Origin: a virus
Lineage: Duplodnaviria > Heunggongvirae > Uroviricota > Caudoviricetes
IMG/VR virus record: IMGVR_UViG_2695420523_000003
Reading direction: 5' to 3' (one strand)
DNA length: 7,290 bases
Part shown: positions 6,693 through 7,290 of the stretch, one piece after another
Numbering within the stretch: position 1 is the stretch's first letter
How the letters are laid out: every line of letters starts with the position of its first letter
Program-made: the position numbers and the translations under genes
The notes under the pieces: model-generated
What the model was told of the DNA's origin: nothing
The model's database searches: none
What the model saw: the letters and a program-made list of their open reading frames with translations, nothing else

Positions 6693-6871
6693 AGCATCCT
6701 CACGATAATATCCGCGTAGGCACGATCACTTTCGTCTACTCCGTTACAAAGCGAGGCTGGGTATTTCCCGGCCTTTCTGTTATCCGAAATCCCCTGAATG
6801 CACAGCGGCTGGCTGAGGAGATAAATAATAAACGGGGGGCTGTATGCACAAAGCATCTCCCGTTGAGTTAA
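6683..6871 (+). CDS. Small hypothetical protein (about 60-62 aa) immediately downstream of exo, in the position of lambda orf63
   Basis: The ORF starts at ATG 6683 or at ATG 6689, which overlaps the exo stop (ATGA). The assignment to lambda orf63 rests on position and size only. Confidence 0.5.
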
Positions 6872-7035
6872 GAACGAGTATCGAGATGGCACATAGCCTC
6901 GCTCAAATTGGAGTCAGGTTTGTGCCAATACCAGTAGAAACAGACGAAGAATTTCATACGTTAGCCGCATCCCTTTCACAAAAGCTGGAAATGATGGTGG
7001 CGAAAGCAGAAGCAGATGAGAGAGACCCGGTATGA
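6844..7035 (+). CDS. Small hypothetical protein (63 aa), in the position of lambda orf61
   Basis: The ATG at 6844 is preceded by a G-rich Shine-Dalgarno (cggggggctgt). Acidic C-terminus. The stop overlaps the next ATG (ATGA at 7032-7035). Confidence 0.5.
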   Translation: MHKASPVELRTSIEMAHSLAQIGVRFVPIPVETDEEFHTLAASLSQKLEMMVAKAEADERDPV

Positions 7036-7115
7036 CAACCACGGAATGCATTTTTCTGGCTGCGGGCTTCATATTCTGTGTGCTTATGCTTGCCGACATG
7101 GGACTTGTTCAATGA
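7032..7115 (+). CDS. Possible 27-aa hydrophobic micropeptide (MTTTECIFLAAGFIFCVLMLADMGLVQ), translationally coupled on both sides
   Basis: Hand-translated. The start ATG overlaps the upstream stop (ATGA) and its own stop overlaps the next ATG (ATGA at 7112-7115). The core AAGFIFCVLML is long enough for one transmembrane helix. Short ORF, so low confidence. Confidence 0.3.
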   Translation: MTTTECIFLAAGFIFCVLMLADMGLVQ

Positions 7116-7270
7116 CACCTCAGCAAGAAAACGCCCTTCGCAGCATTGCCCGTCAGGCTAATTCTGAAATCAAAAAAGCCAGACAGCAGTTTCCGGATGT
7201 CACGAACGGTGCAATAGTGATCCACACCCAACGCCTGAAATCAGATCCAGGGGGTAATCTGCTCTCCTGA
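7112..7270 (+). CDS. Small hypothetical protein (52 aa from ATG 7112), in the position of lambda orf60a
   Basis: MTPQQENALRSIARQANSEIKKARQQFPDVTNGAIVIHTQRLKSDPGGNLLS. The track shows a longer in-frame ORF from 7016, but the ATGA coupling favours 7112 as the start. Confidence 0.45.
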   Translation: MTPQQENALRSIARQANSEIKKARQQFPDVTNGAIVIHTQRLKSDPGGNLLS

Positions 7271-7290
7271 TTCAGGAGAGCTTATGGTCA

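Follow-up and report, generated by a model that had tools for sequence, protein, structure and literature searches.

A conserved hairpin in the istA leader of IS100 at a junction with a lambdoid prophage

How should a hairpin be read when it closes a run of small phage genes and holds the ribosome-binding site of whatever gene comes next? The question is raised by the right-hand end of a 7,290-nucleotide stretch of DNA from a virus of the Caudoviricetes (IMG/VR record IMGVR_UViG_2695420523_000003), the whole of which is referred to here as the window. An earlier note on this DNA, made from the sequence alone, described a chain of mini open reading frames (ORFs) downstream of exo and proposed that translation of the next gene may depend on ribosomes that unwind the hairpin, and so free its Shine-Dalgarno sequence (SD), while terminating on the last of these ORFs. 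The present analysis corrects that picture, in that the apparent phage translational switch is a junction between a prophage and an insertion sequence (IS). The best explanation as a whole, to which a probability of about 85% is given, is that the window ends on a prophage/IS100 junction, that the hairpin is the leader of IS100's own transposase gene, istA, and that the stem would repress istA translation.

The sequence at 6844–7197 is the exo-xis segment of a lambdoid Escherichia coli prophage, transcribed from the promoter pL, and the sequence from 7198 onward is the left end of IS100, a 1954-bp element of the IS21 family inserted in orf61 in the same orientation. A megablast search against phages returned 197 records, with a single match spanning at least 80% of the query in 174 of them, and in every record listed the match ended at query position 599, which is position 7198 of the window. 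When 7150–7290 was searched alone, 7198–7290 was found at 98–100% identity in unrelated P2-like phages, Yersinia phages and phage GER2, adjoining genes annotated as 'IS21-like element IS100 family transposase' and 'IS100kyp family helper ATPase IstB'. A four-way alignment places the switch at 7197/7198, as the window equals the intact phage ev243 up to ...TTTCCGGAT and equals the IS copies from TGTCACGAACGG... on. All of the nucleotides at 7198–7290 (93/93) are identical to copies annotated by RefSeq as IS100 or IS100kyp, and the leader nucleotides of the window recur unchanged in copies from P2-like phages, Yersinia pestis and plasmids. In intact phages, orf61 is the same up to 7197/7198 and then proceeds through unrelated sequence for 42 more codons, the uninterrupted target reading TT-TCCGGA-TAAAAACG, and the intact 71-aa Orf61 matches PHROG 303 at 4.7e-36.

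No junction-bearing record was found among the top-ranked matches in the phage collection or the RefSeq complete E. coli collection, where the top coverage was only 87%, and the allele was located by exact look-up of the 52-aa product encoded across the junction. This product occurs on five E. coli contigs, one of which, the complete chromosome L179 (CP164713.1), holds the full arrangement of orf61', IS100, TCCGGA, the remaining 42 orf61 codons, a TraR-like gene and ea22. The assignment to the IS21 family was based on consecutive istA and istB genes, imperfect 5'-TG/CA-3' ends with internal L1/L2 and R1/R2 repeats, a target duplication of 4–8 bp and a length of ~1.95 kb. The complete copies in L179 and in a P2-like phage (L002) are 1954 bp each and encode an IstA of 340 aa and an IstB of 260 aa. 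IstA, identical in the two copies, carries Pfam rve and HTH matches and scores 321.7 bits against NF033546 'IS21 family transposase' (cut-off 160), and IstB matches PF01695 at 7.6e-112 and NF038214 at 302.5 bits (cut-off 200). The ends are imperfectly inverted, TGTCACGAACGG.../...CCGTCGTTGACA (TGTCA.../...TGACA), with motifs of the GATCCA type repeated in both; the left end is TGTCACGAACGGTGCAATAGTGATCCAC...CAGATCCAG and the right end is ...GGTGGATCA...GTGGATCAC...CCGTCGTTGACA. Direct repeats of 6 bp flank the element, TGATGG in L002 and TCCGGA in L179. The gene pair, the terminal repeats, the target duplication (its right-hand copy lying beyond the window), the near-identity and the length are all those of IS21 and IS100. 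Past 7290, the source sequence would run on as istA and istB, close with ...CCGTCGTTGACA and continue with TCCGGATAAAAACG. IS100 was first described in Yersinia pestis.

The inverted repeat GCTCTCCTGA/TCAGGAGAGC at 7261–7270/7272–7281 is perfect over 10 bp as had been described, and no other inverted repeat as long as 8 nt or longer occurs in 6600–7290. As RNA, the repeat allows nine pairs and not ten, closing a 3-nt loop, with a predicted free energy of -14.5 kcal/mol for the hairpin alone. When the upstream 70 nt were shuffled 2000 times, a stem of equal quality ending no more than 8 nt from the start codon came up once; this position-specific stem test replaced whole-window folding z-scores, which were only moderate for distant IS21 relatives. 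The AGGAG in the 3' arm was likewise borne out, at a spacing of 5 nt from an ATG that proves to be a genuine start codon. What does not hold is the placement of these parts in a phage operon, as the hairpin, SD and ATG 7284 together are IS100 nt 64–89 and the next gene is istA. Rfam gave no match for the leader, either across the whole window at the gathering threshold, where the cIII thermoregulator was the only match, or across L179 3900–4400 at E<=1.

The structure is maintained in evolution. Leaders were extracted from 80 loci encoding IstA relatives, and 9 distinct leader sequences were compared. Four lineages of the IS100 clade, in which IstA is 85–100% identical, keep all nine pairs. 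The first, IS100kyp of E. coli, has the perfect 10+10 palindrome; in the second, IS100 of Y. pestis, the G-C pair at the stem base is a G·U; and in the third, at ~91% identity (Kosakonia, Rahnella, Klebsiella), a U-A pair is a U·G. The fourth, at ~86% identity (Kluyvera, Erwinia, Apirhabdus, Enterobacter hormaechei), has a compensatory change from U-A to C-G along with a change from C-G to U·G, and its loop differs. Across the 9 leaders every cell is paired (81/81), the four varying pairs comprising three G·U and one compensatory change; sliding the register lowers the pairing to 33–65%, and the observed covariation score was reached in 2 of 500 column shuffles. Within the IS100 clade, the hairpin is a real feature, maintained in evolution, that belongs to the IS and not to the phage. 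More distant IstA homologues were sampled from plasmids. In ISKpn7, ISEc57 and a Xanthomonas element (IstA identity 44–50%), unrelated stems with a U-rich loop end 0–4 nt before the start codon, and the stem test was equalled in 3, 27 and 32 of 2000 shuffles, respectively. In IS21 itself, sequence further upstream is paired to both the AAGGA SD and the AUG in the minimum-free-energy fold.

The position of the stem suggests how it might act. In the istA mRNA, the 9-bp stem would hide the SD that serves the first start codon, so that little full-length transposase would be made from any transcript, even one reading through from an outside promoter such as pL. A second start at codon 8, 3' of the stem, is predicted to be more accessible and corresponds to the shorter 'cointegrase' start of IS21. 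Annotations divide between the two, with the GER2 record and the L179 gene calls beginning istA at ATG 7284 and RefSeq beginning it 7 codons later. The second in-frame start (ATG or GTG; codon 9 in IS21) is kept in 9/9 of the IS21-family elements examined and is preceded by an SD-like GAGA, GAGG or GGAG motif; the elements include IS100, ISSen3-like, ISKpn7, ISEc57, Xanthomonas, Ralstonia and IS21 copies (L002 3087–3110; L064, L169–L173, L177). The N-terminal heptapeptide of IstA is also conserved, as M-L/V-T/S-x-E-x-x. The first SD is unpaired with a probability of 0.23 in the IS100 clade, vs 0.60–0.68 for the region ahead of the second start. In IS21, the isoform without the first 8 residues is the cointegrase (PMC10122671), and in IS200 a leader stem-loop sequesters the SD, with disruption raising 30S binding, expression and transposition (PMC4513863). 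The IS100 leader likewise has its SD inside a stable stem whose structure is kept in evolution, albeit through few independent events. By analogy with IS200, IS10 and IS50, the hairpin most likely damps transposase translation, and we would hypothesize that the stem may also bias the ratio of the transposase and cointegrase isoforms.

Several observations weigh against this interpretation. The covariation amounts to only four substitution events, in closely related elements, and the whole-window folding z-scores are modest (-1.1 to -3.8). The contrast in accessibility between the two istA starts is inconsistent outside the IS100 clade. The Ralstonia element has only a weak hairpin and ISBce16 has none, and the feature is therefore not family-wide. 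The identity of the element, the junction, the target duplication and the conservation and covariation of the stem are shown, but repression by the stem is a step that we infer from structure and analogy, because the literature searched yielded no experiment on the translation of IS100. Finally, a consensus scan of 6600–7290 for promoters and terminators predicted no sigma-70 promoter in the IS100 left end, and IS100's own transcript may or may not include the 5' arm. The right terminus of IS100 has a perfect, outward-facing TTGACA -35 hexamer (L002 4949–4954; L179 6035–6040), which is consistent with a split junction promoter of the IS21 type. In IS21, such a promoter is assembled at IS-IS junctions, where the right terminus supplies the -35 and the left end a -10 (PMC10122671). 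A possible -10 in IS100, AATAGT (IS nt 16–21), would sit 17 bp from TTGACA given a 2-bp junction, in a region for which the window scan gave no promoter. The outward TTGACA could also drive the orf61 remnant, the TraR-like gene and ea22 in the prophage.

The alternative that survives best keeps part of the original idea for this allele. Ribosomes travelling on pL transcripts through orf61' would end at the apex UGA, melt the stem and re-initiate at AUG 7284, and IS100 transposase synthesis would then be tied to phage induction. The geometry allows it: orf61' enters the IS in frame 2, of which the apex TGA is the first stop, the IS and the pL operon are co-oriented, and the apex TGA is kept in all lineages of the IS100 clade. 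Given the established size of the ribosome footprint, a ribosome whose A site holds the apex codon would extend over the entire 3' arm. However, the frame that reaches the apex TGA varies by lineage (frame 2 vs frame 1), frame 2 closes at nt 38 in the 86% lineage, and 24 co-oriented insertions of IS100-clade elements in ORFs show no bias in the read-in frame (7:7:10), for which reasons the coupling here is regarded as fortuitous. Translation of orf61 from 7112 would itself rely on an SD that is weak and on coupling by way of the preceding 27-aa ORF. An evolved phage coupling device, as the earlier note had implied, is contradicted by the nature of the upstream ORF, an accidental fusion of orf61 and IS100 and not a native gene, at a place where orf61 of intact phages continues. 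Terminating ribosomes at 7268–7270 could thus open the hairpin in this allele as a consequence of the insertion frame; this is a tentative proposal that we consider possible but doubtful, and it adds to the best explanation and does not replace it.

A fuller form of this idea makes the hairpin a ribosome-operated switch, in which the stem with its apex stop would silence the first istA start, leave the codon-8 start open and be opened by in-frame ribosomes arriving from a disrupted host gene. Here, this would yield a burst of IS100 transposase synthesis tied to pL activation, which is prophage induction. Taken jointly with the proposal that the 27-aa ORF encodes an early membrane peptide of lambda and Stx phages, it is a little less likely again than the fortuitous coupling.

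It is improbable that the palindrome acts as double-stranded DNA, be it a site bound by IstA or by a host protein, or a transposition signal. In E. coli IS100kyp, the palindrome is perfect over 10+10 and lies just inside the terminal repeats, and IstA binding has been reported to occlude promoter regions in IS21 ends (PMC10122671). Against this, three of the four changes are G·U, which keep RNA pairing on the sense strand only and break the dyad symmetry of the DNA, so that an RNA structure is favoured over a DNA palindrome. The stems of ISKpn7, ISEc57 and the Xanthomonas element are unrelated in sequence while their position against the start codon is kept, and the palindrome is interior to the repeated GATCCA motifs, which are what resemble the L1/L2 transposase sites. 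A DNA-palindrome site was rejected on the G·U changes and on the unrelated stems of kept position. Lower still stands the possibility that the hairpin terminates or pauses transcription and so shields the IS from read-through, which we regard as very improbable, as the stem is followed by UUAUGGUCAC with no U-tract, the terminator scan of 6600–7290 found it not to be terminator-like on either strand, and pL transcripts are N-antiterminated. In its favour are the G+C-rich 9-bp stem and the precedent of the IS200 left-end terminator, which protects against impinging transcription (PMC4513863); it was rejected on the lack of a U-tract and the negative scan. That the hairpin is a native phage element controlling the next phage gene from the upstream mini-ORF is almost certainly wrong: the geometry fits, as the stem has the stop at its apex and the SD in its 3' arm and the ATG follows 14 nt downstream, but everything from 7198 is IS100 and identical in non-phage contexts, uninterrupted lambdoid phages have no such hairpin at the point where their orf61 runs on, and the downstream gene is a transposase. 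The alignment across the junction and the full allele of L179 rule it out.

The insertion is found in more than one prophage background. Over 4179 nt, L180 matches the window without a difference, and it breaks off within the IS, as the window does. The draft assemblies with the allele (L180–L182) break 26–74 bases past the stop of the 52-aa ORF, within IS100, and the window stops 20 bases past it; the right edge of the window is probably an assembly break at a repeated IS and not a biological boundary. L179, L180, L181 and L182 have the insertion site and the 52-aa chimera in common and differ in their upstream modules (SieB/Ral, N36 and N_peptide types). An insertion shared by differing prophages, together with the C/T difference at the base of the hairpin, points either to an old insertion that recombination has spread or to gene conversion among IS copies.

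Table 1. Features at the prophage/IS100 junction, in window coordinates
Feature	Position	Strand	Description
orf63	6844–7035	+	63 aa, DUF1382; native lambdoid exo-xis gene; ends in ATGA 7032–7035
27-aa hydrophobic ORF MTTTECIFLAAGFIFCVLMLADMGLVQ	7032–7115	+	Unannotated; ATGA-linked to orf63 (upstream) and orf61 (downstream); GRAVY 1.62
orf61 5' part	7112–7197	+	28 codons + 2 nt; truncated by IS; intact form 71 aa, PHROG 303
Chimeric 52-aa ORF	7112–7270	+	29 orf61 codons + 23 read-through codons, frame 2 of IS100 left end
Target-site duplication TCCGGA, left copy	7192–7197	.	Identical hexamer at both IS ends in L179
IS100 left end	7198–7290	+	IS nt 1–93; terminal inverted repeat from TGTCACGAACGG; istA leader; first 7 nt of istA
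Internal repeats around GATCCA, IS100 left end	7217–7225 and 7242–7250		
istA leader hairpin	7261–7281	+	9-bp stem, 7261–7269 with 7273–7281; 3-nt loop; SD in 3' arm
TGA at hairpin apex	7268–7270	+	Stop of chimeric ORF; first stop in IS100 read-in frame 2
AGGAG SD of first istA start	7274–7278	+	Wholly in 3' arm of stem; 5 nt before ATG 7284
istA start (IS100 transposase, 340 aa)	ATG 7284; 7284–7290 in window	+	Continues past window; second in-frame ATG (codon 8) would be 7305

The phage side of the junction (Table 1) has the organization of a lambdoid pL operon on the + strand of the window, with a cIII thermoregulator match followed by gam, bet, exo, orf60a (DUF1317) and orf63 (DUF1382); the gene order 5' of 7198 is exo, orf60a, orf63, the unannotated 27-aa ORF and the start of orf61. 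The thermoregulator (lambda; Rfam RF01804) is matched at full length at 4564–4622 (+) with 88.5 bits, which confirms the pL-operon orientation of the window. The gene order is identical to that of the lambda exo-xis region (orf60a, orf63, orf61, orf73, ea22), and the nucleotide identity of lambda and the Stx phages to the exo-xis region of the window is >95%, the difference being that orf61 is interrupted by IS100 in the window. A hairpin within orf60a at 6753–6775 (+) is terminator-like, of the classical intrinsic type, with a 9-bp stem of which 6 pairs are GC, followed by TTTCTGTTAT. It maps to ~31265–31287 of lambda, where the lambda records leave it unannotated, and it is probably the tL3 terminator of the leftward operon. 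Transcription of the exo-xis genes from pL is early, and these genes have been reported to affect the choice between lysis and lysogeny (PMC8614690, PMC6213356).

The chain of mini-ORFs in the earlier note stands in part. The two ATGA overlaps on which it was built are present, joining orf63 to the 27-aa ORF (7032–7035) and the 27-aa ORF to orf61 (7112–7115), and two more occur upstream, at bet/exo (6012–6015) and exo/orf60a (6689–6692). Stop/start overlaps of this kind are typical of translationally coupled phage operons. The ATGA-linked ORFs are supported as real genes by Pfam or PHROG matches or, for the 27-aa ORF, by a substitution pattern that gives modest support (p=0.035). The first member, orf63, is established by matches to Pfam PF07131 at 3e-31 and to PHROG 292, by its counterpart in lambda (orf63 at 31005–31196), by published exo-xis work and by 10/12 variable sites at codon position 3 among the 33 haplotypes compared; it shares 28 nt with orf60a (6689–6871). 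The third member drops out, as it is the orf61/IS100 chimera, its codon 29 completed by the first base of the IS.

The middle member is the hydrophobic 27-aa peptide that had been described. The haplotypes derive from 80 lambdoid loci together with ev243 and the window, and the ORF is intact in 33/33 of them while stops arise in the other two frames. Variable sites fall at codon position 3 in 8/13 cases (binomial p=0.035), with 8 synonymous and 5 non-synonymous changes when counted by hand. The ORF is intact in 175/176 phage records, lambda included, and was found on 981 contigs. It matched no Pfam, PHROG or NCBIfam family, and tblastn found no homologue <92% identity, so that the depth of conservation is shallow. 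The annotations of lambda, 933W, ev243 and PhiR68_2 pass over it between orf63 and orf61, a few E. coli records name it 'hypothetical protein', and a review mentions 7-aa and 31-aa peptides in the exo-xis region. Judged from these comparisons of sequence, with modest support, the ORF is probably a real gene for a small membrane peptide.

The same nucleotides have been read in another way. Orf61 is annotated with three different starts, at the equivalent of 7016 in lambda, at 7046 in 933W and Phi24B (93 aa) and at 7112 in PGAP (71 aa), and there may be no 27-aa gene if 7046–7111 (or 7016–7111) is an N-terminal extension of Orf61. Apart from the annotations of 933W L0070 (locus L165 397–678) and lambda orf61, this draws on a PHROG 303 profile with ~22 additional N-terminal positions and on a frame that is open from ATG 7046 in all haplotypes. 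The start at 7016 is ruled out in most haplotypes by a TGA at 7043–7045, and the most frequent variant, ACG to ACT at 7043, leaves the 27-aa peptide unchanged and makes that TGA in the frame of the lambda 'orf61'. Sites in 7035–7111 read in the extension frame give 3 synonymous vs 9 non-synonymous changes, several of them radical, against the 8 vs 5 of the 27-aa frame. In some haplotypes, a change of CAA to CAG at 7112 is synonymous in the 27-aa ORF and turns the orf61 ATG into GTG, which is still a start codon. PGAP and recent annotations begin orf61 at 7112, and published models take residues 24–93 as the folded part (PMC8614690). We consider the extension unlikely, with a weight comparable to that given to the fortuitous coupling, and the comparative data favour a 71-aa Orf61 starting at 7112 and a separate 27-aa membrane peptide over the 61-aa and 93-aa Orf61 annotations.

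Two further observations concern the annotation of Orf61. The reference lambda sequence (L004) has one additional A in the A6 run at 7172–7177, which shifts the frame of orf61 and is the reason that lambda Orf61 (61 aa) looks 'truncated' and unstructured beside the Stx-phage Orf61 (PMC8614690). The 71-aa or 93-aa Orf61 is named 'cell division protein ZapA' in many NCBI records (e.g., NC_049943.1 and NC_004914.3). Orf61 had no NCBIfam or Pfam match, and published models suggest a homeodomain-like fold (PMC8614690); the ZapA name looks like an unsupported propagated annotation. The choice of the Orf61 start bears on how exo-xis deletion mutants and the structural models of 'Orf61' in lambda and in Stx phages are read.

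For the insertion sequence, IS100 and its relatives have a conserved SD-occluding stem before the first of two conserved istA starts, which makes the stem a candidate regulator of the transposase level or of the transposase/cointegrase ratio. Because this copy lies immediately after a phage operon that is strongly induced, and in frame with it, transposition could rise on prophage induction.

The object itself is already known, being IS100 in a known phage region, with a leader stem that represents a known kind of transposase control. Compared with IS100 and IS100kyp, the 93 nucleotides in the window are 100% identical and the full allele has the same length, ends, istA/istB pair and 6-bp target duplication. 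The copy shows no structural difference and is particular only in its location, in orf61 of a lambdoid prophage and co-oriented with pL; a C/T polymorphism at the hairpin base has C at 7281 in the window and T in L179 and Y. pestis. An SD-occluding leader stem was not found described for IS21-family elements in the literature searched, which did not cover key reviews. Transposase leader structures that sequester the SD are reportedly found in IS10 and IS50 (work of the Kleckner and Reznikoff laboratories). There, the transcript of the element itself begins within the structure and is spared sequestration, whereas an IS21-style junction promoter of IS100 would start upstream and leave the stem on all transcripts. 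We know of no antisense RNA for IS100, and no search was made for one. Like IS21 with its dual-start istA, IS100 has a conserved second start, and two isoforms are only predicted for it. The closest parallels in structure are the leaders of IS200 (PMC4513863) and ISPpu9 (PMC8450116), in which, as in IS100, a stable stem near the left end contains the transposase SD. By analogy with IS200, IS10 and IS50, low transposase translation and insulation from outside transcription would be expected alike for IS100.

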